From Minisyncoccota bacterium (GTDB lineage Bacteria; Patescibacteriota; Minisyncoccia; Phycocordibacterales; UBA9973), in contig JBAZVG010000001.1 in assembly GCA_041661005.1 (NCBI GenBank), positions 72,019 through 112,115 on the forward strand: DNA of 40,097 bases. Direction: 5' to 3'. Below, in pieces: positions 2,610 to 39,200 of the stretch (its first letter is position 1; each line of letters opens with the position of its first letter). The notes beneath the pieces are model-generated. The model did not search any database. It was not told the origin of the DNA and saw only the letters and a list, made by a program, of their open reading frames with translations. The position numbers and the translations under genes are program-made.

Positions 2610-3845
2610 ATGGGAAAGAAAAAAGTTTTTGTCGGACTCTCGGGAGGAGTGGATTCTGCTGTCAGCGCGGCGTTGCTTCAAAAATTTGGCTACGAGGTCA
2701 TAGGAGTTTTTATCAAGACTTGGCATCCAGATTTCTTAGAGTGCAATGAAGAGGAAGAACGGCTTGATGCCATGCGTGTGGCAGCCCATCTTGATATTCC
2801 ATTTCTGACTTTTGATTTTGAAGATGTCTATAAAAAGGAAGTTGCGGATTACATGATTTCCGAATACAAAAAGGGGAGAACTCCTAACCCCGATGTGATG
2901 TGTAACAAGCACGTTAAATTTGGCGCATTTCTCAAAAAAGCCATTGCGATGGGGGCGGATTATGTGGCGACGGGTCACTACGCAATGGCAAACAGTGGGT
3001 TTTCCTTTTTTGGGTCGCTGTCTCCGCGTGCTCGCGGAGCGCTGCCTCTCGGCTCGTCAGCCTGCGAGACACCCAAAAAAGGAAAACCCACTGTTTGCTT
3101 GTTTAAAGGAGTAGATCCGTCAAAAGATCAAAGTTATTTTTTGTGGACATTGAAACAAGAACAATTGAAGAGAATTTTATTTCCCGTTGGGCATTTAAAA
3201 AAGACGGAAGTTCGCAAACTTGCCAAGAAATTCAATCTGCCGGTTGCAGAAAAGCATGATAGCCAAGGCATCTGCTTTCTGGGTGATATAGATTTAAAAG
3301 AATTTTTGAAACATTATATAAAAGAAAAAAAAGGCGACGTAATCGTCGTCCCGAGCGAAAGCGAGGGGCGAGATAAAGATGATGTAATTGGTCATCATAA
3401 TGGTGTTGTCTTTCATACACTCGGAGAACGACATGGTTTTACAATTACCAAAAAAAGTCCAACTGATGGACCATATTATATTGTCGGGAAAGATGTGAAG
3501 AAAAATATTTTAATGGTGTCTCAAAATCCTCTCCCCAACCCCTCTCCATTAATTATTAATGGAGAGGGGCGAAGGGGTGAGGTAATTAAAATAATTAACA
3601 CAAATTGGATAGATAAAATTCCAGAAGAAAATAAAAGTCCTGCCCGCAATGCTTTCAGCATAGCTGATGCAGGCGGGTATACCGCCCAAATCCGTTATCA
3701 CGGAGAATTTTTACCATGCCAAATTAAAATAACTGGAAAATCAAAAGCTGAGATAATTTTCAAAAAACCAGTTTTAGTTGCCTCCGGTCAGTCTGTGGTT
3801 ATCTATGATAAAGATATTTGTCTTGGGGGAGGAGTTGTTGTATAA
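2610..3845 (+). CDS. mnmA: tRNA 2-thiouridine(34) synthase MnmA, carrying several short in-frame palindromic insertions
   Basis: SGGVDS PP-loop, TPNPDVMCN, VATGHYA, KDQSYFL, DSQGICF, ASGQSVV. Confidence 0.97.
   Translation: MGKKKVFVGLSGGVDSAVSAALLQKFGYEVIGVFIKTWHPDFLECNEEEERLDAMRVAAHLDIPFLTFDFEDVYKKEVADYMISEYKKGRTPNPDVMCNKHVKFGAFLKKAIAMGADYVATGHYAMANSGFSFFGSLSPRARGALPLGSSACETPKKGKPTVCLFKGVDPSKDQSYFLWTLKQEQLKRILFPVGHLKKTEVRKLAKKFNLPVAEKHDSQGICFLGDIDLKEFLKHYIKEKKGDVIVVPSESEGRDKDDVIGHHNGVVFHTLGERHGFTITKKSPTDGPYYIVGKDVKKNILMVSQNPLPNPSPLIINGEGRRGEVIKIINTNWIDKIPEENKSPARNAFSIADAGGYTAQIRYHGEFLPCQIKITGKSKAEIIFKKPVLVASGQSVVIYDKDICLGGGVVV
2988..3098. repeat. 111-bp intragenic palindromic element (27-bp perfect arms around a 57-bp core) in mnmA
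   Basis: Arms 2988-3014 and 3072-3098 are exact reverse complements. The core is 52/57 identical to the copy in tgt. Confidence 0.95.
3539..3569. repeat. 15-bp-arm palindrome (CCCCTCTCC...GGAGAGGGG type) inside mnmA
   Basis: cccctctccattaat-t-attaatggagagggg, encoding part of NPLPNPSPLIINGEGRRGE. Confidence 0.85.
3639..3677. repeat. 39-bp CCTGCC...GGCGGG intragenic element in mnmA
   Basis: cctgcccgcaatgctttcagcatagctgatgcaggcggg encodes PARNAFSIADAGG. Same length, termini and frame as 10560-10598. Confidence 0.75.
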
Positions 3846-6005: not shown

Positions 6006-7226
6006 ATGGGAATTTTTTCGAGAAATAAAAAAGAAAAAGACAGACTGTTTTTGGTTTTTGATATCGGATCTTCTTCGGTGGGTGGGGCGCTTTTTGGAGC
6101 GCGAGGATCTGGGATTCCAAAAATAATTTTTTCTACGCGCGAACCTATAATTCTACAAAAAAGTCTTGATATCGATCAGTTTTTGTCTTCTACTGTAAAG
6201 TCTTTAGAGATTGTCGTTGGAAAAATATATAAAGCGGGTATGGAAAAACCTGAGGAAATCTTTTGTGTTCTTTCATCGCCTTGGTATGTCTCTCAGACTA
6301 GGGTTATCAAGTTTGAAAAAAATACTCCATTTATATTTACCTCCAAATTAGCTCTTGGTTTAATCCAAAAAGAAATAACCCTTTTTGAAGAAGAATACTT
6401 AGCTAAGTATTCGGATATTAAAAGTCCGGTTCGTTCCATTGAATTTAAAAATATCAAAACAATGCTGAATGGTTATGAAACATCAAATCCCTTGAATCAA
6501 AAAACATCGGAACTCGAAATGGCTGTTTTTATTTCAATCAGCGGAGAGCAAATCTTGAAGAGAATCGAAGAGACCATAAGGGGGCATTTTCATTTTGAAA
6601 AGATAAGATTTTCTTCTTTTGCTATGGCATCTTTTGCTGTGGTGCGCGACATATTTGCAGAGAGCGAAAACTTTCTTCTGATTGATGTCGGTGGAGAGGT
6701 GACAGACATTTCCATGGTCAAGAAGAATACATTGCGCGAGTCGGTTTCTTTTCCTTTAGGCTGTAATTTTATTATACGTGAAGTTGCATCTGCCCTCCAC
6801 CTCTCGTTCGGTGAAACGAGGTCGATTCTTTCTCTTTTTAGAGACGGACATGCCACGGATTCTATGGTAAAAAAGATCGATCTTGTCATGAATGAATTGA
6901 GAACACAGTGGCTAAAAAAGTTTCAAGAATCTTTAGTAAATCTTTCCAATGATATTTCTATTCCCTCGACTGTCTATCTAGCTGTCGACAAAGGAATGGC
7001 TAGTTTTTTCTCGGATACAATCAAAAATGAACAATTTAATCAATATACTTTGACTGAGTCGAAATTTAAAATTATCTTTTTGGGTGCGGAAGTATTCAAT
7101 GGTTTGATTCAATTCAAGGAAAATCTCGCCCGTGACACTTTTTTATCCATTGATTCTATTTACATTAATCGGTTTTTAATTAATCAAACTTCATCTGATA
7201 TGGAGAATGGATTGGAAAAAATATAA
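6006..7226 (+). CDS. actin-like fold FtsA/PilM-related hypothetical protein
   Basis: FDIGSSSVG phosphate-1-like and IDVGGEVTD phosphate-2-like motifs. Confidence 0.65.
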   Translation: MGIFSRNKKEKDRLFLVFDIGSSSVGGALFGARGSGIPKIIFSTREPIILQKSLDIDQFLSSTVKSLEIVVGKIYKAGMEKPEEIFCVLSSPWYVSQTRVIKFEKNTPFIFTSKLALGLIQKEITLFEEEYLAKYSDIKSPVRSIEFKNIKTMLNGYETSNPLNQKTSELEMAVFISISGEQILKRIEETIRGHFHFEKIRFSSFAMASFAVVRDIFAESENFLLIDVGGEVTDISMVKKNTLRESVSFPLGCNFIIREVASALHLSFGETRSILSLFRDGHATDSMVKKIDLVMNELRTQWLKKFQESLVNLSNDISIPSTVYLAVDKGMASFFSDTIKNEQFNQYTLTESKFKIIFLGAEVFNGLIQFKENLARDTFLSIDSIYINRFLINQTSSDMENGLEKI

Positions 7227-9854: not shown

Positions 9855-10757
9855 ATGTTTTTAACTGACACTAAAATAAAAGAACTCGAAATCAAAGCTA
9901 ACGAGATTCGTAAAAGTATTATCGAGATGCTCTTGGAGGCGGGGAGCGGACATACGGCTGGACCGCTTGGCATGGCGGATGTTTTTACTCTGTTTTATTT
10001 TCATGTCTTAAAACATGATCCAAAAAATCCATCGTGGGAAGAGAGGGACAGATTGGTGCTGTCAAATGGGCACATTTGCCCGGTGTTGTATGCAACAATG
10101 GCGCACGCTGGGTATTTTCCGATTGAAGAATTAAAAACTTTGCGTAAGTTTGGCACCCGGCTTCAAGGGCATCCACACAGAGAATATCTTTCAATGCTTG
10201 AAAATTCTTCCGGACCGCTTGGCGCTGGACTCTCGCAGGCGACAGGCATGGCGCTTGCTGATAGAATGGATGGAAAGGACCAAGATCGATTTATTTATTG
10301 TTTCATGTCTGATGGTGAGCAGGATGAAGGAAATTCTTGGGAAGCGATAATGTTTGCTGGAAAGAATAAATTGCGAAACTTGATTGCCGTGGTAGATAGA
10401 AATAATATTCAGATAGATGGCTTTACGGAAAACATTATGCCTTTAGAGCCACTAGCTGATAAGTGGCGAGCTTTTAATTGGCATGTGATAGAGGTGGAGG
10501 GACATGATTTTAGAGCTCTAAACGAAGCGGTAGAAGAAGCACAGGCTATGTATGAAAAGCCTGCCTCGACTCGCGAAGACTCGTCGACGCGAGGCGGGCC
10601 GACAGTTATCATAGCGCATACGATTCCCGGCAAAGGTGTGCGCGAATTCGAAAGAGATTTTAGATGGCATGGAAAGACACCGAACAAAGAAGAGGCAAAG
10701 ATGGCATTGGATGAATTGCGAACATTATCAGGTAAAATAAGGAGCGAACATCAGTAA
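9855..10757 (+). CDS. transketolase, N-terminal (TPP-binding) subunit
   Basis: GSGH, RDRLVLSNGH, RLQGHP, SGPLG, SDGEQDEG...NN TPP motif, GKGV, WHG. Confidence 0.96.
   Translation: MFLTDTKIKELEIKANEIRKSIIEMLLEAGSGHTAGPLGMADVFTLFYFHVLKHDPKNPSWEERDRLVLSNGHICPVLYATMAHAGYFPIEELKTLRKFGTRLQGHPHREYLSMLENSSGPLGAGLSQATGMALADRMDGKDQDRFIYCFMSDGEQDEGNSWEAIMFAGKNKLRNLIAVVDRNNIQIDGFTENIMPLEPLADKWRAFNWHVIEVEGHDFRALNEAVEEAQAMYEKPASTREDSSTRGGPTVIIAHTIPGKGVREFERDFRWHGKTPNKEEAKMALDELRTLSGKIRSEHQ
10560..10598. repeat. 39-bp CCTGCC...GGCGGG intragenic element in transketolase N
   Basis: cctgcctcgactcgcgaagactcgtcgacgcgaggcggg encodes PASTREDSSTRGG between EAQAMYEK and PTVIIAHT. Confidence 0.75.
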
Positions 10758-14657: not shown

Positions 14658-16199
14658 ATGAATTTTTTTAACAAGATTTTTGGGTTTTTGAATAGGAAAA
14701 AATATATTTACGGGATAATTGCCTTTCTCCTGATTGTCGCTGTGATATTGATTTTTAACGATAAAAAGGCGGTGGATCAGACTTTTGCTGTCAAACATAC
14801 CGATTTTATCAATAAGGTATCTATTTCCGGAAAAGTTGTAGCGACAGAAGATGTTGATTTGAGTTTCAAAAGCGGAGGACGTATTGGGAGCATTTTCTTC
14901 TCAGTCGGACAGGGAGCAAAAAAAGAACAGATGATAAGGGTTGGAACTCTAATTGCAAAGATTGATACAAAAAATGCGGAAAAAGTTGTTCATGATGCAG
15001 AGATTGACCTAGAAAGCGCAAAATTATCTCTGGCAAAAATAAAAATTCAAAATTCAGATGAAGAAATGAATGCTGATTTAGTTAAAGCCTATGACGATGG
15101 TTTTACTGCAGTCTCGGATTCATTTTTAGATTTATCAACTATTGTAACCGGTCTGGATGATATTTTAAATGAAGAAAATGTTTCCGATAATACTGCGCGG
15201 GCTAGCGGACAGATCGCTTTAAATTATAAAAATGAATCCGAGAAACTATTTTATCAAGCCAGGAGCTCCCTTGAAAACAGCAGAAAGAAATTCAGATTGC
15301 TTAATCGAAGTTCTTCTAGGGTAGAAATCGAATCGATTATAAACGGGACTTATGAAACAGCAAAGATCTTTTCCAATGCCGTAAAAAGCGCGAAAAATCT
15401 GGTAGATTATTTATCGGATGATACAAGTAGAACTACGGAGTATGCTTCCTCCAAAGACACTCTTGCCGAATATACTGACGATATAAGTGGACATCTTGGG
15501 AGCCTGCTTTCTGTCCAGACGAGCATAAAAAATTCTAAAGATGCTTTTCCGAGCGCTAGTCTAGACATCCAAGACGCGTTGCTTTCTATAAAGCAAAAAG
15601 AAAATTCCGTGCAGGATGCAAAAAATAAATTGTCGGATTGTTATATTCGCGCGCCATTTGATGGAGTGATAACAAAGATAGACGCAAAAGTCGGCGAGAT
15701 TGCGACTGCGGATGTTCCCTTGATTACGATGATGAGCGTGGATAATTTTCAAATAGAAAGCTATGTGCCGGAGGTAAACATTGCCCAAATCAAGTTGGGC
15801 GATGAAGCTGTCAGCACCCTCGATGCCTATGGAGAAGACGTTTTATTTAATGCAAAGATAGTTTCAATAGACCCAGCAGAAACGATCAGGGATGGGGTTT
15901 CAACTTATAAAATAAAACTTCAATTCTCTGAGAAAGATGATCGCATAAAGTCAGGCATGACCGCAAATGTTTCAATAACAACCTTTAACAAGCTCAATGT
16001 TATAGTGATTCCCGGAGGAGTTATTTTTGAAAAAGGCGGAAAGAAGTTCGTACAAGTGAAAATTGGTGAAGAAATATCAGATCGGGAAGTTTTCTTGGGA
16101 AGTATTTCTTCTCTAGGTCAAACTGAGATTGTTTCGGGTCTTGCTGATGGTGATTTGGTCATCCTTAACCCGCCTAATTCTTTATCTTTAGTGGAATAA
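14658..16199 (+). CDS. efflux periplasmic adaptor subunit (HlyD/MacA-like)
   Basis: N-terminal TM, LSFKSGGRI, long coiled coil, IRAPFDGVI, VPEVNIAQIKLG, IKSGMTANV, GLADGDLVI. Confidence 0.9.
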   Translation: MNFFNKIFGFLNRKKYIYGIIAFLLIVAVILIFNDKKAVDQTFAVKHTDFINKVSISGKVVATEDVDLSFKSGGRIGSIFFSVGQGAKKEQMIRVGTLIAKIDTKNAEKVVHDAEIDLESAKLSLAKIKIQNSDEEMNADLVKAYDDGFTAVSDSFLDLSTIVTGLDDILNEENVSDNTARASGQIALNYKNESEKLFYQARSSLENSRKKFRLLNRSSSRVEIESIINGTYETAKIFSNAVKSAKNLVDYLSDDTSRTTEYASSKDTLAEYTDDISGHLGSLLSVQTSIKNSKDAFPSASLDIQDALLSIKQKENSVQDAKNKLSDCYIRAPFDGVITKIDAKVGEIATADVPLITMMSVDNFQIESYVPEVNIAQIKLGDEAVSTLDAYGEDVLFNAKIVSIDPAETIRDGVSTYKIKLQFSEKDDRIKSGMTANVSITTFNKLNVIVIPGGVIFEKGGKKFVQVKIGEEISDREVFLGSISSLGQTEIVSGLADGDLVILNPPNSLSLVE

Positions 16200-21155: not shown

Positions 21156-24125
21156 ATGAAAGAATATAACCACTTAAAGATAGAAAGTAAATGGCAGAAA
21201 GAATGGGAAAAAAAAGGGATTTATCATGCAGAGAACCCTACCAAGGACGGGGCAAGTAATTCAAAAAAACCCAAATATTATAGTTTAATTGAGTTTCCTT
21301 ACCCATCCGGCGAGGGTCTTCATGTTGGACATCCACGGCCTTATATAGGAATGGATATAATTTCTAGAAAAAGAAGGTTGCAAGGATACAATGTCTTGTA
21401 TCCTATTGGCTGGGATGCATTCGGCTTACCGACAGAGAATTACGCCATAAAAACAGGCAAGGACCCGAGAGTTGTCACTAAAAAAAATACTGATACTTTC
21501 CGTAAACAGATACAATCGCTTGGCATTTCTTTTGATTGGTCTCGAGAGATAAATACTACTGATCCAAAATATTACAAATGGACGCAATGGATATTTTTGC
21601 AGTTTTTGAAAAAAGGTTTGGCTTACAAAAAGAAGATGGAGATAAATTGGTGCCCGAAAGATAAAATCGGTCTGGCTAATGAAGAAGTGATAACCCGTTC
21701 GACAGGCTCAGGGCAAGCTGGCTATTGTGAGCGATGTGGGACTCCTGTAGAAAAAAGAGAAAAAGAACAATGGATGCTCGCTATTACAAAATACGCTGAT
21801 AGGCTTTATAAAGATTTAGATGAAGTGGATTATTTGCCTCAGATAAAACTGGGGCAGAGGAATTGGATAGGGAAGAGTGAAGGCGCGGAAATAGATTTTA
21901 AAATCAAAGATAGTAGTGAAAAAATAAAAATATTTACTACGCGCGCTGATACTATTTTTGGTGCTTTTGCGGTCATACTTGCGCCAGAACATGAATTGGT
22001 GCAAAAATCAAAATCACAAATTAAAAATTTTAGTGAAGTTGAAAAGTATTTAAATGAAGTAAAAAAGAAAACAGACATAGAACGCACCTCCGAAGATAAA
22101 GATAAAACAGGAATTGAATTAAAGGGATTGAAAGCAATAAATCCAGTAAATAATGAAGAAATTCCTATTTGGATTGCGGATTTCATTTTGGTTCAATATG
22201 GCACAGGAGCTGTCTTTGCAGATATGCATGATGAGCGTGATTTTGCATTCGCAAAAAAATACAAGATGTCGATGCGTCAGTCAGTCATGCCTTTGTTTGA
22301 AGATAAAGTGCATCCATGGGTTAAGGATAAAAAAATAGTAGAAAGAAAAGCGATACATGCTGTGATTAGAAAAAATAATGGGGACATCCTGCTTCTTTAT
22401 TGGAAGGGTGAAGAATGGAAGGGTAAACCTCCGGTTACTTTTGTCATAGGTGGTGTTGAGAACGGTGAGAATTTGATTGATGCCGCTATGCGAGAAATAA
22501 GAGAAGAAACAGGTTTTTTAAATTTAAAATTTGTTGAACAATTGCCAATATCTACTCAATCCAGATTTTTTGCCGCCCATAAAGATGTTAACAGGATTGC
22601 GAATGTAACTTGTCTTGTTTTTGATTTAATAAATGAAGATCGTGCGGAAGTTGATAAGAAAGAAAAAAAACTTCACGATTGGAAATTTGTCTCTGTAAAT
22701 AAAGTTGCGCAAGATCTGAATATTGAAGATGATAAATTGTTTTTTAATTATCTAAATAAGCCTTCAACATTTGTTGGTGAGGGCGTGTTGATAGATTCTG
22801 GTAAATTTACCGGTATGCCATCTGTAGAAGCTCGTCAAAAAATAATAAAAGAAGTGGGTGGTAAAATAGTCACCAAATTCAAACTTCGCGATTGGGTTTT
22901 TTCGAGACAGAGATATTGGGGCGAGCCGATTCCGGTGATTTTTTGTAATACTTGTGGGACAGTGCCAGTGCCGGAAAAAGATTTGCCGGTAGAACTTCCA
23001 AAAGTTAAAAATTATCAGCCGACAGATAGTGGTGAATCACCACTCGCAAACATAAAGAGTTTTGTGGACACTCGGTGTCCACTATGTAAAGGCAAAGCGA
23101 AGAGGGAAACAGACACAATGCCAAATTGGGCAGGAAGCTCTTGGTATTATTTGCGATATGTTGATTCGAAAAATAATAAAGCTTTTGCAGGGAAAAAGAA
23201 TTTAGAATACTGGCTCGGGAATGACCAAGTTGTTGGTGGAGTAAATTGGTATAACGGAGGCAATGAACACACTACTTTACATCTTTTGTATTCTCGTTTT
23301 TGGCATAAATTTTTATATGATTTAAAACTTGTGCCTACAAATGAGCCATATATGAAGCGAACTTCGCATGGCATGATTTTAGGCGAAGGGGGAGTTAAAA
23401 TGTCTAAATCTCTAGGTAATGTGATCAATCCAAATGAAATAGTGAAAACATACGGCGCAGACACGATGCGTGTTTATGAAATGTTTATGGGGCCGTTTGA
23501 TCAATCCGTCGCTTGGTCTACGGAGAGCATCATCGGTGCAAGGAGATTTATTGAAAAAGTTTGGAGAATTCAGGCGAAGCTTGTGAATGATTTTGAACGG
23601 TCTGGCCGGGGGAGGGACCCGGAGAACCGAGGACCTGAAAAATTATTCACAAGCGAAGCCTATATAAATCTAAAAAGATTACTACACAAAACCATCAAAA
23701 AAGTTTCTGAAGACATTGAAGATATGCGTTTTAATACTGCTGTTTCTTCTATGATGATTCTGGCAACAGAGATGGAGAAAGCTGAGAATGTTTCCGTAGA
23801 TGATTTCAAAATGTTTTTAAAAATTCTTTCGCCTTTTGCGCCACATGTGACGGAAGAATTGTGGAGCATGCTTGGTGAAAAGAAAACAATCAATCTTTCG
23901 GAATGGCCGAAATGGGAAGAGAGTTTGATAAAAGATGAAGAGGTAAAAATTATGGTACAAATAAACGGCAAAGTCAGAGGTGAAATCATTATCCATGTGG
24001 ATGAACAGAAAGAAGATGTAAGAGATAAAGCTCTCAAAGACGCTGACATAGTGAAATACGTTGAAGGTAAAGATATTAAAAGAATAATCTATGTAAAAGG
24101 TAGACTTATTAACATTGTTTTGTAA
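21156..24125 (+). CDS. leuS: leucine--tRNA ligase with an internal Nudix domain
   Basis: FPYPSGEGLHVGH (HIGH), CP1 motifs FTTRADT and GTGAV..HDERD, SRQRYWGEPIP, KMSKS; Nudix box GGVENGENLIDAAMREIREETGF. Confidence 0.97.
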   Translation: MKEYNHLKIESKWQKEWEKKGIYHAENPTKDGASNSKKPKYYSLIEFPYPSGEGLHVGHPRPYIGMDIISRKRRLQGYNVLYPIGWDAFGLPTENYAIKTGKDPRVVTKKNTDTFRKQIQSLGISFDWSREINTTDPKYYKWTQWIFLQFLKKGLAYKKKMEINWCPKDKIGLANEEVITRSTGSGQAGYCERCGTPVEKREKEQWMLAITKYADRLYKDLDEVDYLPQIKLGQRNWIGKSEGAEIDFKIKDSSEKIKIFTTRADTIFGAFAVILAPEHELVQKSKSQIKNFSEVEKYLNEVKKKTDIERTSEDKDKTGIELKGLKAINPVNNEEIPIWIADFILVQYGTGAVFADMHDERDFAFAKKYKMSMRQSVMPLFEDKVHPWVKDKKIVERKAIHAVIRKNNGDILLLYWKGEEWKGKPPVTFVIGGVENGENLIDAAMREIREETGFLNLKFVEQLPISTQSRFFAAHKDVNRIANVTCLVFDLINEDRAEVDKKEKKLHDWKFVSVNKVAQDLNIEDDKLFFNYLNKPSTFVGEGVLIDSGKFTGMPSVEARQKIIKEVGGKIVTKFKLRDWVFSRQRYWGEPIPVIFCNTCGTVPVPEKDLPVELPKVKNYQPTDSGESPLANIKSFVDTRCPLCKGKAKRETDTMPNWAGSSWYYLRYVDSKNNKAFAGKKNLEYWLGNDQVVGGVNWYNGGNEHTTLHLLYSRFWHKFLYDLKLVPTNEPYMKRTSHGMILGEGGVKMSKSLGNVINPNEIVKTYGADTMRVYEMFMGPFDQSVAWSTESIIGARRFIEKVWRIQAKLVNDFERSGRGRDPENRGPEKLFTSEAYINLKRLLHKTIKKVSEDIEDMRFNTAVSSMMILATEMEKAENVSVDDFKMFLKILSPFAPHVTEELWSMLGEKKTINLSEWPKWEESLIKDEEVKIMVQINGKVRGEIIIHVDEQKEDVRDKALKDADIVKYVEGKDIKRIIYVKGRLINIVL
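23579..23654. repeat. intragenic palindromic element in leuS (16-bp arms, one mismatch)
   Basis: gcttgtgaatgatttt ... aaaattattcacaagc around a GC-rich core. Confidence 0.85.
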
Positions 24126-24147: not shown

Positions 24148-25476
24148 GTGATTTTTAGAATTGAAAAAAAAATTTCTACTAAGAATAAATTTGCCTTAGG
24201 CGAAAAAAAATATTTAGGCAGAGCGGGAGTTTTGACAACCTCCCACGGGAACATTCTGACTCCAGCTTTTGTGCCTGTGGGCACCAAAGCCAGTGTAAAG
24301 TCGTTAACACCCGAACAAGTGAAAGGTTCGGGCGCGGAAATTATTTTATCCAACACTTATCATTTATATTTACAGCCGGGCGATGAATTAGTTGCCAGAG
24401 CTGGAGGCTTGCATAAATTTATGAATTGGAATAGTCCGATAATGACTGATTCTGGTGGGTTTCAAGTTTTTTCCTTGGGAGTTGCTTATGGTAAGGAGAT
24501 ATCTAAAATTACTAAAATCACTGACCCATCTCTCCTTATTCCTGAACGTTTTGATGATTCCGGAGCTCCTCGTTTGGCAAAAATCGGGCAAGACGGTGTC
24601 TCTTTCAAATCGCATTTGGATGGTTCCATTCATTACATTACCCCGGAGAAGTCAATACAGATTCAGCACAATCTCGGCGCGGATATTATTTTTGCATTTG
24701 ATGAATGCACTTCTCCTAGTGAGGATTTGCGGTATCAAGAAGAAGCGCTTGAGCGCACGCATCGCTGGGCAGAGAGGAGTTTGGTGGAGCATAAGAAGTT
24801 AAGCGAGGAGAGAAAAGCTTTCCTTGCGGGGTCGCTGTCTGTGCGTGCTCGCACAGCGCTGCCTCTCGGCTCGTCAGCCTGTGAGACACCCCGCAAGGAA
24901 ACTTTTCTCTCCTCGCCTGCACTTTTTGGTATTGTGCAAGGCGGGCGAGACGAAAATTTACGCAAGAAATCTGCAAAGTTTTTGGCAGGTTTGGATTTTG
25001 ATGGTTTTGGAATCGGTGGATCATTTGCAAAAGAAGATATGTCGATGGCGGTGAAATGGGTAAATGGAATCTTACCAGAAGAAAAGCCCAGACATTTACT
25101 CGGCATCGGTGAGCCCGAAGACTTGTTTGGGGCGATAGAGAATGGTTGTGATTTATTTGACTGTGTCGCGCCTACGCGTATTGCTCGTAACGGTCAGCTT
25201 TATACCAAGAATGGAAAAATAAACATAATGAATGCGAAATATAAAAATAATTTCGATTCGATTGAAAAAGATTGCGGTTGTTATGTCTGCAAAAATTACA
25301 CTTGCGCGTATTTGACGCATCTTTTTCACGGAAAAGAAATGCTTGCCGCGACACTCGCTTCCATGCATAATTTATATTTTATTATTAACTTAGTGAAAAA
25401 AATAAGGCAGTCGATCCTGGAAGATAACTTTTTTGAGTTTAAAGATGAATTTTTAAAAGAGTATCTAAAAGTTTGA
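24148..25476 (+). CDS. tgt: queuine tRNA-ribosyltransferase
   Basis: TPAFVPVGT, NTYHL, TDSGGFQVFSL, FDEC, FGIVQGG, RHLLGIG, DLFDCVAPTR, C-C-C-H zinc site. Confidence 0.97.
   Translation: MIFRIEKKISTKNKFALGEKKYLGRAGVLTTSHGNILTPAFVPVGTKASVKSLTPEQVKGSGAEIILSNTYHLYLQPGDELVARAGGLHKFMNWNSPIMTDSGGFQVFSLGVAYGKEISKITKITDPSLLIPERFDDSGAPRLAKIGQDGVSFKSHLDGSIHYITPEKSIQIQHNLGADIIFAFDECTSPSEDLRYQEEALERTHRWAERSLVEHKKLSEERKAFLAGSLSVRARTALPLGSSACETPRKETFLSSPALFGIVQGGRDENLRKKSAKFLAGLDFDGFGIGGSFAKEDMSMAVKWVNGILPEEKPRHLLGIGEPEDLFGAIENGCDLFDCVAPTRIARNGQLYTKNGKINIMNAKYKNNFDSIEKDCGCYVCKNYTCAYLTHLFHGKEMLAATLASMHNLYFIINLVKKIRQSILEDNFFEFKDEFLKEYLKV
24803..24916. repeat. 114-bp intragenic palindromic element in tgt, same family as mnmA 2988-3098
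   Basis: 28-bp arms with one bulged C; 57-bp core; 38 codons in frame. Confidence 0.95.
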
Positions 25477-27427: not shown

Positions 27428-27727
27428 TGGTCCTGTATTGGATAGCTACTCCGACGTAAAGTCGGGGAGGAAAGTCCGAACACAGCCTCGGCTTCGGTCG
27501 AGGAGAATGGTAGTGGGTAACGCCCACATATAGCAATATATAGTTGCGAACAGTGACGAACCGATTTAGTTCGGGTGAAACGGCTAAATACTTACTTCTG
27601 TGCAAGATCGTGCTCCGACTTCGGTTGGAGAGAATCGCTTGAGTCCTAGAGTAATTTAGGACCTAGATAAATTGCTATCTCTTTGCTTTGGCAAAGATAC
27701 AAAATTCGGCTTATAGATACAAGACCA
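27428..27727 (+). ncRNA. rnpB: RNase P RNA
   Basis: P4 motifs GAGGAAAGTCC and ACAAAATTCGGCTTA, GGTAACGCC, GGGTGAAACGG; P1 formed by tggtcctgtat and atacaagacca. Confidence 0.93.
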
Positions 27728-27735
27728 AAAACATG

Positions 27736-31345: not shown

Positions 31346-31531
31346 GTGGCTACAAATAATTCCTCGCCGTCGCTCGGAATTTTCGCAGCCCGCCCCTCGG
31401 AGGCTCGGCTACTACATAGCCAGGTGATTTTCTAGCTACGCAAAGAAAATCCTTTCTCGCGACTTAAAATTTAACTTGTGGCTACAAATAATTCCTCGCC
31501 GTCGCTCGGAATTTTCGCAGCCCGCCCCTCG
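31346..31531. repeat. two exact 54-bp direct repeats (31346-31399 and 31478-31531)
   Basis: gtggctacaaataattcctcgccgtcgctcggaattttcgcagcccgcccctcg occurs twice, 132 bp apart. Confidence 0.95.
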
Positions 31532-31565
31532 CGGTTTTGCGTGCTCGCAAAACATCGCTGCGGTC

Positions 31566-31615
31566 TCCACAAATTTAAAAATCTGCCGCAGGGCAGATAT
31601 TTTAAAGTTTGTGGA
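31566..31615 (-). terminator. long hairpin immediately 3' of tRNA-Ala
   Basis: tccacaaatttaaaaatctgcc-gcag-ggcagatattttaaagtttgtgga. Confidence 0.7.
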
Positions 31616-31684
31616 CCCTTGGAGGCTCGAACTCCACACCTCCTCATTGCAAATGAGGCGCTCTACCAGATGAGCTAAGGGCCC
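31612..31684 (-). tRNA. tRNA-Ala (TGC)
   Basis: GGGCCCTTAGCTCATCTGGTAGAGCGCCTCATTTGCAATGAGGAGGTGTGGAGTTCGAGCCTCCAAGGGTCCA; cloverleaf, G3:U70 pair, CCA not encoded. Confidence 0.97.
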
Positions 31685-32035: not shown

Positions 32036-33052
32036 TTATTTGTTGGGTAATAATGATTTGATAGACTCAGCTTTTAATGTATAAGCTCTCACGAATGAAT
32101 CATCAACGTGAGCATAAAGTATTCCTTCACCATCTTTTGTTTCAATAAATTGACTAGCAAATGTGATGGTCTTTGCTTCACTGTCTTGAATAAATGGTTC
32201 GGGGGAAACCCAATCAATTTTTCCATTTTCGTAATCATAAATGAATAATCCAACTGAAAACATGCCATATTTTATTTTATCACCAACTTTTTCATTAGCT
32301 TCGCGTCCGTTTATGACACCCAAAAGTTTTCCTTCTCCAATATCAATGAAATTTTTTGAAAAAAGAGGTCCTGGTGAAGCATGACCGCCAATCCAAGAAA
32401 TATTATGTTCCTTGGGATGAAACACAGTGTCGCCGTATTTCCAGGGTTTACCCATATCTTCTGCGATAGCTACTTTCACGATGGAATAAGTTGTGTCAAT
32501 TTGCCTATCTCTAGATTCAATAAGATTATATCTAAAACCCTTAGAGTTAATTGGGGCAATAGAAACTTCTTTAGCGCTCAATTGCACAGTGTCCATAAGT
32601 ACAGGCATTGTCATTTCTAAAGAATCTAAATCTTTTCCAACAGCATGCCCAAGGTGAATCTTTATTTTATTTCCAGTATCATTCGGAGGTCTGATGGGTA
32701 TCGTAAAATATAAATGCATTAAACCTGTCTTGTCATCTATCCAGATATCTGGGTCTTCTAGACCAATAAAATCCCAACCCTTCTCTGTGAGTTGGTTGAT
32801 TATTTTTTCTTCATTTTTTATTTCTAATTTTCTATCTAATTCGAAGTGTTCTAAAGAATTTCCTTTTATTTTATATAATTCACTCCTATCAACATATCCT
32901 TTGACTTCAACATCACCCTCCCTGCTTCTGATGCACCTAATCACTCCATTCCGATAATGTGTTTTAGGATCAAGGGTAATAGCCATGACATGTTTAAATT
33001 TACTGTTTGTTTCCACGACTTTACCTTCATGTTGAGTATATAATTTTTGCAT
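32036..33052 (-). CDS. five-bladed beta-propeller glycosidase-like protein (GH130/GH43-like fold)
   Basis: GLEDPDIWID...MHLYFT, HLGHAVGKDL, ASPGP, ITFASQF...GILYAHVDDS. Confidence 0.5.
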   Translation of the reverse strand: MQKLYTQHEGKVVETNSKFKHVMAITLDPKTHYRNGVIRCIRSREGDVEVKGYVDRSELYKIKGNSLEHFELDRKLEIKNEEKIINQLTEKGWDFIGLEDPDIWIDDKTGLMHLYFTIPIRPPNDTGNKIKIHLGHAVGKDLDSLEMTMPVLMDTVQLSAKEVSIAPINSKGFRYNLIESRDRQIDTTYSIVKVAIAEDMGKPWKYGDTVFHPKEHNISWIGGHASPGPLFSKNFIDIGEGKLLGVINGREANEKVGDKIKYGMFSVGLFIYDYENGKIDWVSPEPFIQDSEAKTITFASQFIETKDGEGILYAHVDDSFVRAYTLKAESIKSLLPNK

Positions 33053-33087
33053 ATTTAAATTATAGCAAAATTTTAGATTAGTTTACG

Positions 33088-33104
33088 AGCTCCGGGGGTA
33101 GGGA
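33088..33104. repeat. 17-bp tRNA-3'-end-like direct repeat, copy 1 (putative att site)
   Basis: agctccgggggtaggga, identical to 38195-38211. Confidence 0.8.
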
Positions 33105-33165
33105 AGTATGTTCGGGTAGAAATACTAAAAGGGAAAACCTCACAAGAGACTCATTGTTTCCATAC

Positions 33166-33513
33166 TTATTCCTTTTCTTTTATCAGAACTTCTCTTGGCT
33201 TGGCTCCATCTCCTTCACCTATGATATCTCGCTCTTCCAGTAAGTCCATCAATCTAGCTGATCGCGCATAACCTAATTGAAATTTTCTTTGAATATAAGA
33301 AGTTGATGCTCTGCCTGCTTTTATCACAGCGGACTTTACTTTCTCATATAAGTTTTCATCATCAAGATTATCATAAATACCCCCATTTTCATTTTTTATC
33401 TGCATTATAATATCTGAATATTGCGAGTTCTGACGCTCTGAAATCAATCTGACTTTTTCAGACAATTCGTCGATTTTTCGCTCTATATTTTTAAGATTTT
33501 CTTTTCCGAACAT
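33166..33513 (-). CDS. stand-alone FtsK gamma (winged-helix) domain protein with N-terminal coiled coil
   Basis: DENLYEKVKSAVIKAGRASTSYIQRKFQLGYARSARLMDLLEERDIIG..GAKPREVL; no motor domain. Confidence 0.88.
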   Translation of the reverse strand: MFGKENLKNIERKIDELSEKVRLISERQNSQYSDIIMQIKNENGGIYDNLDDENLYEKVKSAVIKAGRASTSYIQRKFQLGYARSARLMDLLEERDIIGEGDGAKPREVLIKEKE

Positions 33514-33575
33514 AGATTATATTATATCAATACTCCTTCAAAAACACCATTTACAAATCTTGCCAAAGTTCATTG

Positions 33576-33603
33576 TAAACTATTCTAATATTCTTGAGAA
33601 TAT
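33576..33603 (-). promoter_or_regulatory. promoter-operator cassette, copy 1 (upstream of the FtsK-gamma gene)
   Basis: 28-bp repeat containing palindrome ATATTCT-tg-AGAATAT; minus strand reads TTCTCA-17-TACAAT. Confidence 0.65.
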
Positions 33604-33610
33604 CAGAACA

Positions 33611-33892
33611 CTAAAATCTACATAAAAAATCGCAGAACATTTTTCCATAAGGTGAAACTCTATGCTCTACTGTAGTGCCTTTGTAATTTTTATTGAGTAA
33701 CCCTGCTTGTACCAATCGCCTCGTGTGTTCAGAAATTGTTTTAAAATTACAATCTAGGTTTTCTGAAATTTCATCCAAGGAAATCCCGGGATTTTTTAAC
33801 ACAAGTAGTAATATTGAAATACGACGATGATTAGCCGCGCCCTTAAAATATCTTTCGAGTTGCTTTGCTGTTTTTGTTTTGTTTGTTTTCAT
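33611..33892 (-). CDS. ArsR-like winged-helix transcription regulator
   Basis: ANHRRISILLLV...ISLDEISENLDCNFKTISEHTRRLVQAGLL.K...G..VEHRVSPYG. Confidence 0.85.
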   Translation of the reverse strand: MKTNKTKTAKQLERYFKGAANHRRISILLLVLKNPGISLDEISENLDCNFKTISEHTRRLVQAGLLNKNYKGTTVEHRVSPYGKMFCDFLCRF

Positions 33893-33906
33893 ACTACTAT
33901 TAATTA

Positions 33907-33934
33907 TAAACTATTCTAGTATTCTTGAGAATAT
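33907..33934 (-). promoter_or_regulatory. promoter-operator cassette, copy 2 (upstream of the HTH gene)
   Basis: 27/28 identical to 33576-33603; minus strand reads TTCTCA-17-TATAAT. Confidence 0.7.
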
Positions 33935-33992
33935 AGGAATAGATTTAGGATTTTTGTTGTGCTGTTTTATAACTCTTGCCAAAGTGCGTGAG

Positions 33993-34163
33993 CTAATATT
34001 TACTTTTCACCGGAAAGTTGCTTGGTGAGCTTTCTAGGGCCTCAGGAAGTGCATTGGTGGGTTCAGAATGTGCTGTGTTTTCAGGAGCAGGCTCGGTGGG
34101 CTCTTTGGAGCTTGGTGGAATAGAGTTTTCTTCGGGGGTTGGGTTTTGAGGTTCGTCGGGCAT
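33993..34163 (-). pseudogene. short Pro/Glu-rich ORF, possibly a truncated gene remnant
   Basis: MPDEPQNPTPEENSIPPSSKEPTEPAPEN..., 56 aa, ATG 2 bp after the upstream stop. Confidence 0.3.
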
Positions 34164-34165
34164 AA

Positions 34166-34459
34166 TTAATTTCGGTGAGATCCAAACCAATCCCAAGCTT
34201 GTTTTGGAAGCCACCCTTGTTGGTTCTTTGGATTAACTTCCATTATTATGTGTTGTCTTAGAGGCATATGCTTAATTAAAAGATTATAAAGTTGATTCAC
34301 TTCTAATGCAGACTCAACAAAATAAAGTCCCCCCGGTAAATAATGCCACCAAGTTTTAATATAACCAAGTTTATAGAGTTGTTGTATATAAACATGAAAT
34401 TTACTCAGATCAAAGGGATGAGTTGTATTAGGCATAATCATGTAAATTTTATTATTCAT
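34166..34459 (-). CDS. small ferredoxin-like-fold protein (family often labelled SinR-like or Cas2-like)
   Basis: WWHYL...LYNLL...IIMEV....QGWLPKQAWDW motif; recognised from memory. Confidence 0.55.
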   Translation of the reverse strand: MNNKIYMIMPNTTHPFDLSKFHVYIQQLYKLGYIKTWWHYLPGGLYFVESALEVNQLYNLLIKHMPLRQHIIMEVNPKNQQGWLPKQAWDWFGSHRN

Positions 34460-34856
34460 GTTCTTGTTTCTCTATTTTATCTATTGATAAGGAATCGGCA
34501 GTTTCGGGTTTGGGTAAGCTTGGATTATTTTCAAGTGTAGATGATTTAAAATCTTTATATGTATGTTGTTGATCTCCTAAGACTTCTAAAGCTCTCATCA
34601 TGAATATATGATGTTCGGACTGGAGAAATTTTTTATCTCCCCAAATTAAAATTCCAATAAAAGAAAGTAAAAATACAGCTAAAGTAAATCCAATTGCCCA
34701 CATAAAAAAAATTTGAACAGTAATATTATCAGTAAAACTAACAACCACTAATCCGGCAAAAAGGAAAGGTAAAATCCATAACAGAGAACTGAGCACAGTA
34801 CTAACACGTACTTTCTTTACCATTTCTGTAGCTGATTTTATTGGATCAAATGACAT
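34452..34856 (-). CDS. hypothetical two-TM membrane protein
   Basis: Two hydrophobic segments (about residues 20-68), then LQSEHHIFMMRALEVLGD; overlaps the next gene by 8 bp. Confidence 0.7.
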   Translation of the reverse strand: MSFDPIKSATEMVKKVRVSTVLSSLLWILPFLFAGLVVVSFTDNITVQIFFMWAIGFTLAVFLLSFIGILIWGDKKFLQSEHHIFMMRALEVLGDQQHTYKDFKSSTLENNPSLPKPETADSLSIDKIEKQEHE

Positions 34857-34860
34857 AAAA

Positions 34861-37008
34861 TTATTTTTTCTCTAAAACTTCCTGAACTATCCCCTGAATA
34901 ATATCTCCTTCTTCTGGAATAATTGGTTGATGTTTGGAATTGGTACTTTTTGGTAATAATATTCTGCGACCATCTCTTTTGTCGTAATATTTTATTGTGA
35001 CATTTTCACCCCCAAGCAAGGCAACAACCTTATCACCAGTTTCACCCTTTTCTGAATAACGACACAATACTAAATCCCTATCATTAATTCCGGATTTATT
35101 CATAGAATCTCCATCAGCTCTAACTATAAAATATTTTGCTCCAGGTTTAATTTTACTTTTTTCAACTTCAATATATTCCTCAATATTTTCTTCACTAAGA
35201 AGCGGATTTCCACATGGAGCAGAACCGACTAATGGAATACCAATTGTATCAATAACATATGGGGATTCAATTATTTGAGATAAAATAACTTCATCTTTTA
35301 TCTTATTCTTAATGTTGTACATCTCTACGTGTTCATTAAAATAGTCTCTTAAATTTTTATTACATGCATAAATATATGAACCCTTAATCCCTCTAAGCAA
35401 AAGAGTTTTGTATATATTTATTATAAACTTTTTAAGTTCTTCTGGATTTTTAATTGATTGCTTTCCATTTTTATCGAAGTAGTTTTCTTCTAAAATAATA
35501 ATCTCGTTTTTTTCTTTATCGTAAGATATTTCATCTCCAAAAATTATTCCTGTATAATTTAAGTCATATCCTTGCGTGGTATGAATACATCCAACCTCAT
35601 TTATTGCATTCTGGGAATTAATAAAATCTTTGGTTACGCTATTCCATTTTAATTTAATATCGCCAATGACAATGTCATGTATATCTTTTTTTCGTGAAAT
35701 CCATGGCCAAGAAAAACCTGCAACGAGTCTTGATAAACCAAATTTGTCATTCCTATTTTTTATCTTTTCAACCATATCATTCAAGGAATCAAAAATTAAA
35801 AATTCATAGTCCCCAGATTTAAATAAAATATCATTTTTACGGAACTTGCAATTTAATAATTTATCAATATAACTAACATAATCAACCCCACCCCTAACTC
35901 TAAATTGTGAATTAAGTTTTTGTATTAATGTTGTCTTCTTTAATTTAAGAAGATCAAAATCTTTCTTATTAACATCTGATGGTTTTATAGATTGATTTTC
36001 ATCATAGAAAAACAGACTTTTTTTACTTTGTGTAATTATCCAATCTAATTCATTGCCAACATGTTTTTCTAAACCCAATTTTTGATTTACAATATCAAAA
36101 GCACCGAAATATGTACCAAGATTAATTCTTTTTCGTAATCTATGTGATTCATCAACAATTAAAATATCGTATTTTTTATTTACAACCTCAGCTGGACCAA
36201 TTACCATTGAAGCATTCAAGCCTTTTACATTTCTGAATACTTTTTTTAATGTTCCACGAAATGAAGCCATCGGAACAACTAATGCCATAGATGGATCGGG
36301 GTACTTATTCTTTAAATCTCTAACTAATTTTATAAATTCCTTCTCGTCGTCCCCAAAATCCTTAAAATTAAAATCATTTAGATCGGAATTTAATAATTTA
36401 AAAAGGAATACAGCTAAAATAGTTTTACCGGTACCAGCACCTCCCTCAACAATTATACTGTTTGTTTCATTTTGTAAAAGATTTTTAATAAGTTCAATGA
36501 TGCTATTCTTTTGATCAACTGAAAGAGTTTTATAGGGAGAATACTTAAATAAATCAGAATTATTAATTTGTTCTAACGAATTTTTTATTATTCCTTCAGA
36601 TTTCAATTCTTTCCAAACTGTTTTAAAAATATCCCAATATATTTCATTTTTTTGATAATAAGTATGATTAGCTAACCCAAGATTTCCATTTAATAATTTA
36701 AATTGGCCATCTCCCGATAAATATTTAATTAAATTAGATTCTATATCTAGCGTTGCTGATTTATTAAATTTGTCACTTGTTATAAGTCGAACCTCTGTAA
36801 GTTTATTTTTAGAATTATTTTTAAGATGTGTAGACATTCTAGAGATTGCGTCAGTTGTTTCACCTACATAGGCCTCCTTAATATTTCCATCACTTAAAAT
36901 ATAAACCAGTGGCCACAAACCATCTACAAAATGATTTTTATCAATTTTATTTAACAAACTGAAATTAAAATCGTATTTTTTGATTTCAAAAATGTTTACT
37001 TCATTCAT
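34861..37008 (-). CDS. GIY-YIG nuclease + DUF2075 (Schlafen group 3-type) SF1 helicase-like ATPase + C-terminal S24 (LexA/UmuD-like) peptidase domain
   Basis: VYIL...YVGET...R..H and LDIES (GIY-YIG); GGAGTGKT, IVDESHR, YDENQ, SQFR, CIHTTQGYD; IPLVGSAPCG, ADGDSM, VTIKYY (S24). Confidence 0.88.
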   Translation of the reverse strand: MNEVNIFEIKKYDFNFSLLNKIDKNHFVDGLWPLVYILSDGNIKEAYVGETTDAISRMSTHLKNNSKNKLTEVRLITSDKFNKSATLDIESNLIKYLSGDGQFKLLNGNLGLANHTYYQKNEIYWDIFKTVWKELKSEGIIKNSLEQINNSDLFKYSPYKTLSVDQKNSIIELIKNLLQNETNSIIVEGGAGTGKTILAVFLFKLLNSDLNDFNFKDFGDDEKEFIKLVRDLKNKYPDPSMALVVPMASFRGTLKKVFRNVKGLNASMVIGPAEVVNKKYDILIVDESHRLRKRINLGTYFGAFDIVNQKLGLEKHVGNELDWIITQSKKSLFFYDENQSIKPSDVNKKDFDLLKLKKTTLIQKLNSQFRVRGGVDYVSYIDKLLNCKFRKNDILFKSGDYEFLIFDSLNDMVEKIKNRNDKFGLSRLVAGFSWPWISRKKDIHDIVIGDIKLKWNSVTKDFINSQNAINEVGCIHTTQGYDLNYTGIIFGDEISYDKEKNEIIILEENYFDKNGKQSIKNPEELKKFIINIYKTLLLRGIKGSYIYACNKNLRDYFNEHVEMYNIKNKIKDEVILSQIIESPYVIDTIGIPLVGSAPCGNPLLSEENIEEYIEVEKSKIKPGAKYFIVRADGDSMNKSGINDRDLVLCRYSEKGETGDKVVALLGGENVTIKYYDKRDGRRILLPKSTNSKHQPIIPEEGDIIQGIVQEVLEKK

Positions 37009-37010
37009 AA

Positions 37011-37358
37011 CTAAAGTTTGTTATATTTTGTATGCCTTCCTTTAGCTTTTTCGACTGGATACTTTTCTTCGTTTTTTAAAATCTTTTTTTTAAGTGCTTC
37101 TGAAACATCAATCTTTAGATCATGACTCATCAGCAAGACCCAATAAAGTACGTCCGCTAATTCTTCACCAATCTCGACTTTATTAGTTTTAATATATTTT
37201 TCAATTTCCTCTTTGCTTTTCCATTGAAAATGTTCCATAACTTCTGTCGCCTCTAAAACTAAAGATAAGGCAACATCTTTCGGGTTGTGGAATTGCTTCC
37301 AATCTCGGGCGTCACGGAAAGCTATAATTCTTTTTGTTAAATCGTTAATATTTTTCAT
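37011..37358 (-). CDS. MazG-like nucleotide pyrophosphohydrolase (dCTPase-like)
   Basis: FRDARDWKQFHNPKD...EATEV...EELADV...KNEEKYP. Confidence 0.93.
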   Translation of the reverse strand: MKNINDLTKRIIAFRDARDWKQFHNPKDVALSLVLEATEVMEHFQWKSKEEIEKYIKTNKVEIGEELADVLYWVLLMSHDLKIDVSEALKKKILKNEEKYPVEKAKGRHTKYNKL

Positions 37359-37726
37359 AATTTTATCTCAAAAGCTCATCACTCGAAACCCCCGCCAAAG
37401 GACGGGCAGGCAAGTGCTTTTGCTAATTTGGTAATAACCGAGTTTTCTTGAGTTATTCACAACCTGAGTATAATCCTTATTGTCTTTTTCAACAATGTTG
37501 TTTTGTAATACAATGTGTCTCCAAAATCTTCCCCCGCATTCCTCCCCAGAAATACAGTCGCGCTTTAATGGGACAGTGCACGACACGATTCTGCTGAATC
37601 GCTTGCGGGCAGAATTCCGAATTTCGCCAAATTTCAAAGAAATCTACGCGAAACTAAATATGCATATATGCATACCTGCCTCCATTTCCCCCTTCTATTT
37701 TACATTTCTCCCACGTTACTTTACTT

Positions 37727-37744
37727 AACTAAAGTACTTTAGTT
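37727..37744. promoter_or_regulatory. perfect 18-bp palindrome, possible operator
   Basis: aactaaagt|actttagtt, upstream (minus strand) of the MazG operon. Confidence 0.35.
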
Positions 37745-37837
37745 GGCTAAAGTAAATAGCTTCCGAATTCACTAGGACAGTCCTTGCGAAAACTTAGATA
37801 AACAGAAAGCCCCACCGAAGCAGAGCTCCCGTGGGGT

Positions 37838-38113
37838 TTAGTTCAATATCGCTGGTATTAACACTCTCCAGATAGTGATGCCCGCCATTACTGGAGGGAA
37901 GACCACACCGATGAATGTTACAAACTTCTCAAAACCGTGACAACGTGGGTAAGCCTTCATCCAACAAACGAAAACAAACACGTTGACAATAATCTGCAGG
38001 CATCCCGCGAGTATGTTTAGATTCTCGAAGAAATTTGTGCAGTTGGCAATGAGGAAGAATGAAAAACCCGCAATTCCAGAAATTATTCTCCACTTCTTAG
38101 AATTTGGCTTCAT
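37838..38113 (-). CDS. hypothetical small membrane protein
   Basis: 91 aa with about three hydrophobic segments; preceded by a strong promoter match. Confidence 0.6.
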   Translation of the reverse strand: MKPNSKKWRIISGIAGFSFFLIANCTNFFENLNILAGCLQIIVNVFVFVCWMKAYPRCHGFEKFVTFIGVVFPPVMAGITIWRVLIPAILN

Positions 38114-38162
38114 TACCTATTATCCTTTCATTTCAGGTTTTAACAAAAATCTACTCATAATG

Positions 38163-38191
38163 AGTATGGCACACTAAAATCTATTTGTCAA
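38163..38191 (-). promoter_or_regulatory. sigma70-type promoter
   Basis: TTGACA-17 nt-CATACT on the minus strand, directly after the tRNA-like repeat. Confidence 0.7.
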
Positions 38192-38194
38192 TTT

Positions 38195-38214
38195 AGCTCC
38201 GGGGGTAGGGATCG
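38195..38214 (-). repeat. tRNA 3'-end remnant (Asn-like), direct repeat copy 2
   Basis: Minus strand CGATC-CCTAC-CCCCGGA-G-CT reads as T-loop, T-stem, acceptor strand and discriminator G; the rest of the tRNA is absent. Confidence 0.75.
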
Positions 38215-39165: not shown

Positions 39166-39200
39166 ACCTTAATTATACTCCAGTACCTAAAACTACTGAG

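Follow-up and report, generated by a model that had tools for sequence, protein, structure and literature searches.

A palindromic repeat in frame within mnmA and tgt of a Minisyncoccota bacterium, and its relatives across Paceibacteria

Two copies of one repeat in mnmA and tgt

The window analysed here, a stretch of 40,097 nt from a Minisyncoccota bacterium, carries the genes mnmA and tgt, each identified from its closest homologues and from solved structures. Each gene contains one copy of a single palindromic repeat of approximately 105-115 bp, which we call family A. A sequence-only reading of this DNA had proposed two related, in-frame and stop-free segments in these genes; their positions and frame were confirmed, and the differences between the two cores match the 52/57 identity it gave. 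The genes and the parts of each copy are arranged as follows.

2610..3845, + strand: host gene mnmA (tRNA 2-thiouridine synthase)
2988..3098, + strand: family-A element, mnmA copy; 111 nt, 37 codons, in frame
2988..3015, + strand: left arm, mnmA copy; 28 nt, 100% complementary to 3071-3098
3016..3070, + strand: core, mnmA copy; 55 nt, GC-rich
3017-3045, + strand: hairpin P1, mnmA copy; variable 5-bp stem 3024-3028/3033-3037, loop TGCT
3046-3068, + strand: hairpin P2, mnmA copy; stem 3051-3054/3059-3062, loop CGTC
3071..3098, + strand: right arm, mnmA copy; perfect pairing with the left arm
24148..25476, + strand: host gene tgt (tRNA-guanine transglycosylase)
24803..24916, + strand: family-A element, tgt copy; 114 nt, 38 codons, in frame
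24803..24832, + strand: left arm, tgt copy; 30 nt, one extra unpaired base near 24818
24833..24887, + strand: core, tgt copy; 55 nt
24834-24862, + strand: hairpin P1, tgt copy; stem GTGCG/CGCAC, compensatory relative to the mnmA copy
24863-24885, + strand: hairpin P2, tgt copy
24888..24916, + strand: right arm, tgt copy; 29 nt

Both inserts are stop-free in the same frame, reading GSLSPRARGALPLGSSACETP in mnmA and GSLSVRARTALPLGSSACETP in tgt, and their arms encode Lys/Arg-rich segments. If translated, family-A inserts would add 33-38 residues; GSLSPRARGALPLGSSACETPK is an example of the peptide predicted across an insert junction in the mnmA/tgt pair of the window. The two cores differ by CC/GG versus GT/AC, a compensatory change in one small hairpin, and by a single C/T. 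A 26-mer of the core occurred exactly twice in the window and never in 100 shuffles. The extra base near 24818 in the tgt copy lies 14 nt from the core, and the arm consensus has an extra base there too. Both copies are predicted to fold as a long hairpin, at -72.5 kcal/mol (z -11) for mnmA and -75.8 kcal/mol (z -9) for tgt, with a core GC of ~0.7 against 0.38 for the window. An unfiltered covariance model built from 142 copies recovered only these two family-A copies in the window, scoring 108.7 and 104 bits. The next-best matches were the reverse strands of the same two hairpins, followed by unrelated hairpins below 15 bits.

The inserts had been placed in variable loops, and comparison with solved structures and orthologues bore this out. 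MnmA residues 127-159 have no counterpart in the solved structure 9hlv, where they face residues 134-139, and Tgt residues 213-248 face only residues 183-187 of Z. mobilis TGT. At the same sites, the insert-free MnmA P0047 has a 14-aa loop and seven Tgt proteins without an insert have 11-15 aa, compared with 46 aa in the window. Measured against these orthologues, essentially the whole hairpin is extra sequence, which gives no support to the arms being an inverted duplication of host sequence. An AlphaFold model of the window MnmA was poor (mean pLDDT 54), with residues 129-156 lying at low confidence between two strands. A separate stretch of ~30 Tgt residues (112-142; window 24481-24575), which shows neither a high GC content nor a palindrome, is also absent from Z. 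mobilis TGT.

Other features of the window were recorded alongside. The leucyl-tRNA synthetase encoded at 21156-24125 carries a NUDIX domain at residues 397-528, and an IleS-like synthetase at locus L057 carries a histidine-phosphatase domain; both are whole-domain insertions in CPR synthetases. A direct repeat of ~55 nt (31356-31418 and 31488-31552, ..GGCTACAAATAATTCCTCGCCGTCGCTCGGAATTTTCGCAGCCCGCCCCTCG) lies just upstream of a tRNA at 31612-31684. Its second copy is followed by TTTTGCGTGCTCGCAAAA, and GCGTGCTCGC is common to it and hairpin P1 of the element. Beside the tRNA, an opposite-strand gene block (32036-39927, minus strand) encodes a protein with weak GIY-YIG, Schlafen-type helicase and S24 peptidase domains (34861-37008), together with an FtsK-gamma protein, an HTH protein, a MazG-like protein and several ORFs without a Pfam match; the block looks like an island or a defence locus. 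An RNase P RNA match at 27430-27729 scored 100.6 against an Rfam gathering score of 100 and spans 300 nt of the 367-position model. Given this marginal score and short span, the RNA appears reduced or divergent.

Host genes, reading frames and turnover of family A

The sequence-only reading had left room for these to be the only two copies, lying in loops that are equally long in orthologues. Instead, pattern scans yielded ~190 further family-A copies among the matches listed, from Paceibacteria assemblies and at 1-3 per genome where the genome was identifiable, and the insert-free Tgt loops are short, as given above. An exact 24-nt pattern of the right half of the core matched 68 loci in species-representative genomes, again with 1-3 copies per genome, nearly all of them in Nomurabacteria or Paceibacteria-type CPR assemblies. 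A pattern of the left half matched at least 120 metagenome loci; these include a few chance matches that are not elements (e.g. L074, L079, L163 and L180). Both patterns favour copies with conserved core halves. No viral contig matched the 24-nt right-half pattern, and a phage origin was rejected on this ground. A 42-aa concatenated peptide query for host proteins returned no candidates. The proposal of a dispersed, mobile palindrome that adds peptide to essential enzymes thus held as regards dispersal, and mobility is suggested by the distribution.

Host genes were identified by clustering the host ORFs with the insert masked. Among the matches listed, 126 copies lie in identified host genes: Tgt (39), UvrD (34), TsaD (23), an IleS-like class I synthetase (9), Fmt (5), SQHop-like secreted protein (3), CCA-adding enzyme (2), RluA-type pseudouridine synthase (2), UvrB (1) and MnmA (1), plus two unknown families. 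The suggested link to enzymes that modify tRNA position 34 was therefore too narrow, since UvrD, UvrB and a secreted protein carry the element too. Nonetheless, tRNA-acting families make up 7 of the 12 hosts, compared with roughly 4 of the 38 genes of the window, an excess that may come from such genes being long and universal.

Of the six frames of the core, five contain no stop. Among the matches listed, the genic copies nevertheless use almost exclusively two of them: 66/126 read GSLS..ALPLGSSACETP, 59/126 read GVSQADEPRGSA..DSDP with the core reversed, and a single copy reads otherwise. The combination of orientation and phase that creates a TGA was found in none of these 126. Selection against harmful peptides and stops would give such a pattern, which argues for translation of the insert rather than its removal. 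The ~60 copies among the matches listed that lie outside long ORFs use any frame. Sixteen of these were inspected; they lay between ORFs or within short overlapping ORFs, and in most of them 27-100 nt separated the core from the edge of a long ORF. Eleven of the sixteen came from genomes with a GC of 0.45-0.56.

Intergenic copies such as L093, L107, L129, L133 and L182 lie in GC-richer relatives and have the flanks GCGCTCG ... CTCGCT-nn-AGTTGG. The right flank motif is almost confined to the neighbourhood of the element (13 of 17 occurrences). The flanks contain a direct CTCG repeat and, in addition, another conserved 3' motif; this arrangement may represent a target duplication or belong to a larger unit. 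At genic copies, no clear target-site duplication, TA or other, was seen.

The description of a palindrome that adds peptide was upheld by the 126 in-frame copies in housekeeping genes (among the matches listed) and by the presence of sites that are empty, decayed or truncated. In the 120 closest Tgt homologues, the sense form was present in 67 and the antisense form in 6, ~25 had hairpins of other families and 7 lacked an insert; several more had degenerate, frameshifted or truncated inserts (P0128, P0145, P0171 and P0198). The turn after ATGHYA in MnmA holds at least 12 types of insert peptide, and, with the insert masked, the nearest neighbour of an MnmA has the same insert type in only 16 of 84 cases. 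At least two of these types are one family in both orientations: FELPEGP..RAQGRK and FSSLRPSPEY..LGKLK, which had been considered as two families on the same arms, proved to be one tip in opposite orientations. These patterns fit elements arriving, flipping, decaying and being replaced, not a fixed functional module.

Further hairpins were noted in coding sequence. A second family is represented at 23572-23661 by an in-frame insert of the leucyl-tRNA synthetase gene; its arms are AT-rich and its tip is GGTCTGGCCGGGGGAGGGACCCGGAGAACCGAGGACCTG. This tip is also present in the UvrD loci L012, L013, L034 and L046, and in L046 it directly adjoins a family-A copy. A second in-frame palindrome of mnmA (3528-3582; CCCCTCTCCATTAAT-TAT-TAATGGAGAGGGG, read PLPNPSPLIINGEGRRGE) falls within a stretch of residues that are extra relative to solved MnmA structures. 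GC-rich or long hairpins at 10552-10613 (transketolase N-terminal part), 15112-15243 (HlyD-like) and 6065-6110 (FtsA-like) may be other or decayed palindromic inserts. In L094, L164 and L146 an extra GC-rich hairpin is nested at the junction or P2 loop of the family-A core, which points to elements within elements.

Pairing, conservation and inversion of the element

The core comprises two small hairpins. P1 has a variable 5-bp stem and a TGCT-type loop and stands on an invariant base, whilst P2 has a 4-bp stem with the loop CGTC and lies within an invariant CTC..GAG. The flanking arms are AT-rich, extend for ~25 bp or more and frequently show a one-base offset ~14 nt out from the core. They had been thought unrelated between copies. 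This was wrong: a consensus, GGAGAAAATTCTTCTTTTGCGGGGT / ACCCCGCAAAAGAAGAATTTTCTCC, is common to the 64 copies compared and decays outwards, its information reaching background ~25 nt from the core. Pairing often extends a few bases beyond this consensus with site-specific sequence. As the consensus is common across sites, we also discarded the idea of arms fixed to their site with a tip that alone is mobile.

Pairing was assessed across 142 distinct copies. The paired fraction was 99.4% for P1, 99.5% for P2 and 80.9% for the arms. Double-sided changes numbered 898 compared with 296 in shuffles, slid controls collapsed, and one-sided changes and G.U pairs made up less than 1% of cells. The near-absence of G.U pairs and one-sided changes is unlike RNA helices. 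This strict Watson-Crick pattern would fit a constraint that acts on the two strands of the DNA alike, or else the correction of quasi-palindromes with the hairpin as template, a mechanism suggested by what is established about template-switch mutation. Isolated arm mismatches, read on the core strand, were A.C in 27 cases and G.T in 9, regardless of the direction of the host gene.

The loops (TGCT and CGTC) and the junction bases are near-invariant across lineages whose host proteins are 65-80% identical. To account for this, a sequence-specific reader or recent spread is needed, with the caveat that the scans favoured conserved core halves and that degenerate copies exist. Sharing of P1 was 0.67 between copies of the same genome, 0.65 between copies at the same site in different genomes and 0.58 for other pairs. 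The closeness of the first two values gives no support to frequent homogenisation within genomes. Identical P1 variants also recur at different host sites and in different genomes.

In Tgt, UvrD, TsaD and Fmt, the core occurs in either orientation at one and the same site. We simulated inversion of the whole hairpin in place. Amongst copies with a one-base arm asymmetry, to which these counts apply, the ORF stayed open and the two peptides interconverted in 18/19 sense and 9/10 antisense copies. Because the left arm has one extra base, a flip in place swaps exactly the two open frames. Flipping the tgt copy at 24803-24916, 24806-24913 or 24812-24907 gives SEERKVSLRGVSQADEPRGSAVRARTDSDPARKAFLSS, nearly identical to the natural peptide of Tgt P0197 (SAEEKVSLRGLSQADEPRGSAPRVRGDSDPARKAFSSA). 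Breakpoints inside the extra base of tgt instead gave a TGA stop, as did every simulated flip of the perfect-armed mnmA copy. In the natural opposite-orientation copies L142 and L178 the asymmetric arm positions exchange sides. Another family, at the MnmA site, behaves alike in that its tip (GAGCTTCCCGAGGG..GGGACGA) is present as exact reverse complements in L069 and L070. Very recent flips were not supported; the closest opposite-orientation pairs differ by ~16% in flanking DNA.

Relation to known repeats and interpretation

We compared family A with known families and related systems. At the gathering score no Rfam family matched the element, and in E-value mode only generic hairpin microRNA models appeared, far below threshold. 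Curated covariance models of self-cleaving ribozymes, introns and riboswitches did not match it either. A hammerhead-like CUGACGA on the complementary strand was dismissed as it conflicts with the covariation-supported P2 pairing. A Pfam scan of 30 window ORFs found no transposase, HUH enzyme or integrase, and neither a RAYT nor a related insertion sequence was seen in the window; the RAYT/TnpA-like HUH transposase that had been suggested as a partner is thus missing from these 30 ORFs.

The closest parallel lies with the Rickettsia palindromic elements (RPEs), to which the sequence-only reading had likened the segments. RPE-1 to RPE-10 (Ogata et al. 2000, 2002) are repeats of ~100-150 bp, with 105-146 bp also given as their range, that have a long stem-loop and are found in frame in 19 ORFs of R. 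conorii and also in RNA genes (PMC2229807, PMC10969869). Family A resembles them in length and in its long stem-loop (111 and 114 nt, -72.5 and -75.8 kcal/mol), in lying in frame within conserved housekeeping genes (126 among the matches listed) as well as outside long ORFs (~60 among the matches listed, the 16 inspected lying between ORFs or in short overlapping ones), and in the co-occurrence of several families in one small reduced genome. For neither is a mobility mechanism or a transposase established (PMC2229807, PMC10969869). The likeness is one of form, and the phylum is another; as its hosts are Paceibacteria, family A is an analogue of the RPEs and not a member. It also differs in that its core, GC-rich although the host is AT-rich, consists of two hairpins whose stems covary strictly, and in having only 1-3 copies per genome by exact pattern. 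Frame-swapping inversion and the turnover of families at one loop are not described for RPEs in PMC2229807 and PMC10969869. In line with the earlier remark that no description in CPR was known, none of the papers searched joined RPEs with CPR, and a search on MITEs in CPR gave nothing relevant.

MITE-like repeats such as Correia/NEMIS, ERIC and RUP (PMC2229807) share with family A their small size, lack of coding capacity on their own, inverted terminal arms, long stem-loop transcripts and occasional fusion to ORFs. The family-A arm consensus supplies the terminal inverted repeats common to copies that such elements have, but the best-conserved part of family A is its centre, not its termini. 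The palindromic GC clusters of yeast mitochondria (PMC4478555) are likewise GC-rich palindromes dispersed through a compact genome that is AT-rich; they turn over rapidly, merge with one another and are exchanged horizontally by recombination, and their amplification mechanism is not established. They differ in belonging to a eukaryotic organelle, in their length of ~42 nt and in having no known systematic in-frame residence in many enzymes. For REP/BIME palindromes, an HUH enzyme acting in trans, the RAYT, is proposed to process the hairpin form, and CGTC, the invariant P2 loop of family A, is a conserved tetranucleotide in one REP super-family (PMC3733652). REPs, however, are high-copy extragenic sequences of 20-40 bp whose stem has a GTAG or CGTC tag at its base (PMC3733652). 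Membership was rejected for our element, which is ~110 nt, mostly genic, present at 1-3 copies per genome and carries its CGTC in a loop. Integron attC sites have conserved outer R boxes and a variable centre. In family A the centre is most conserved and the outer arms most variable, and an attC identity was likewise rejected.

Taken together, family A is probably a non-autonomous palindromic element, a selfish 'protein-coding palindrome' that is RPE- and MITE-like in function and spread across Paceibacteria. Its notable features are the conserved Y-shaped core, frame-neutral flipping and turnover at hot spots.

Other explanations were weighed against the same evidence. The core might be a functional site in DNA, a protein-bound cruciform or hairpin serving replication, recombination, repair or chromosome structure in the manner of REP/BIME and selected in place. 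Such a site would function in either orientation. Strict Watson-Crick pairing, which lets both strands fold, near-invariant loops and junction bases in 142 distinct copies, and retention at orthologous sites in many lineages would suit it. We nevertheless consider it unlikely, as genomes hold only 1-3 copies in genes that vary, many orthologues either lack the core or have hairpins of unrelated families in that loop, copies that are decayed or truncated are tolerated, and such a site would be oddly placed within the coding sequence of an essential gene. A structured RNA within the mRNA, such as an autoregulatory protein-binding site, an RNase III site or a tRNA mimic controlling tRNA-handling enzymes, would explain the very stable fold, the covariation of both P1 and P2 and the 7 tRNA-acting families among the 12 hosts. 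This is quite improbable, given that either orientation at the same gene site means half of the mRNAs bear the complement, that G.U pairs are almost absent, unlike in RNA helices, and that the slight wobble bias of the arms tracks the core strand rather than the transcribed one. Copies also lie between ORFs and in UvrD/UvrB, and Rfam has no match.

Translation itself bears on the two remaining alternatives. A perfect 28-bp helix of ~-75 kcal/mol within an ORF is a severe obstacle to the ribosome, and the GC-rich hairpin contrasts with the AT-rich genome around it (GC 0.38); both would favour an intervening sequence kept out of the protein by RNA removal or ribosome bypass, as in T4 gene 60 and mitochondrial bypass elements. 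Frame and stops would be irrelevant to a skipped segment, yet 125 of the 126 genic copies among the matches listed occupy two open frames and the TGA-making combination of orientation and phase is absent from them. The perfect outer stem leaves no bulge-helix-bulge motif and ribozyme and intron families do not match, so there is very little chance that the insert is removed or bypassed. Conversely, the peptide could be an adaptive protein module selected in nucleic-acid enzymes, as its recurrence in nucleic-acid-binding enzymes and the Lys/Arg-rich segments encoded by the arms might suggest. Orientation, however, places two unrelated peptides at the same site, conservation is at the nucleotide level with third codon positions included, frameshifted, truncated and insert-free variants are common, and unrelated families take the same loop. 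An adaptive module is hardly credible against this record.

As selfish DNA, family A would enter rarely, and the copies that survive would be those in a permissive surface loop in a harmless, translated frame, or those between genes. Flipping could occur by recombination or template switching between the arms, and repair templated by the hairpin would restore the complementarity of the arms. That the loops and junction bases hardly vary points to a putative factor, specific for both sequence and structure, that would copy or move the element. Some observations sit less easily with a selfish origin. A purely neutral passenger would not keep its loops and junctions near-invariant, though the scans selected conserved core halves; 1-3 copies per genome is low for a transposon; and 7 tRNA-acting families among 12 hosts is not obviously predicted by a model of random insertion and filtering.

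A tentative and rather doubtful extension is that the Y-shaped core is the handle of a dedicated structure-specific enzyme, either a single-strand HUH transposase or a cruciform-acting recombinase, and that the element is adapted to essential genes. Its adaptations would then include open frames that are harmless both ways, inversion made frame-neutral by the one-base asymmetry, and arms of T-runs and A-runs that avoid forming a terminator. If true, this would define a class of transposon that shelters in permissive loops of housekeeping enzymes within the gene-dense genomes of CPR.

Protein-coding palindromes were previously described as peculiar to Rickettsia and Wolbachia. For selfish protein-coding palindromes, the several families found across Paceibacteria indicate that the phenomenon recurs in another small, AT-rich and gene-dense lineage. 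The element offers a tractable case in which a conserved core, flipping in place and compatibility with translation come together without a known transposase, and its hot spots point to loops able to accommodate 30-40 additional residues. Length variation in the housekeeping proteins of CPR can thus stem from selfish DNA rather than adaptation, which bears on annotation, on phylogenetic markers and on structure prediction in these bacteria.
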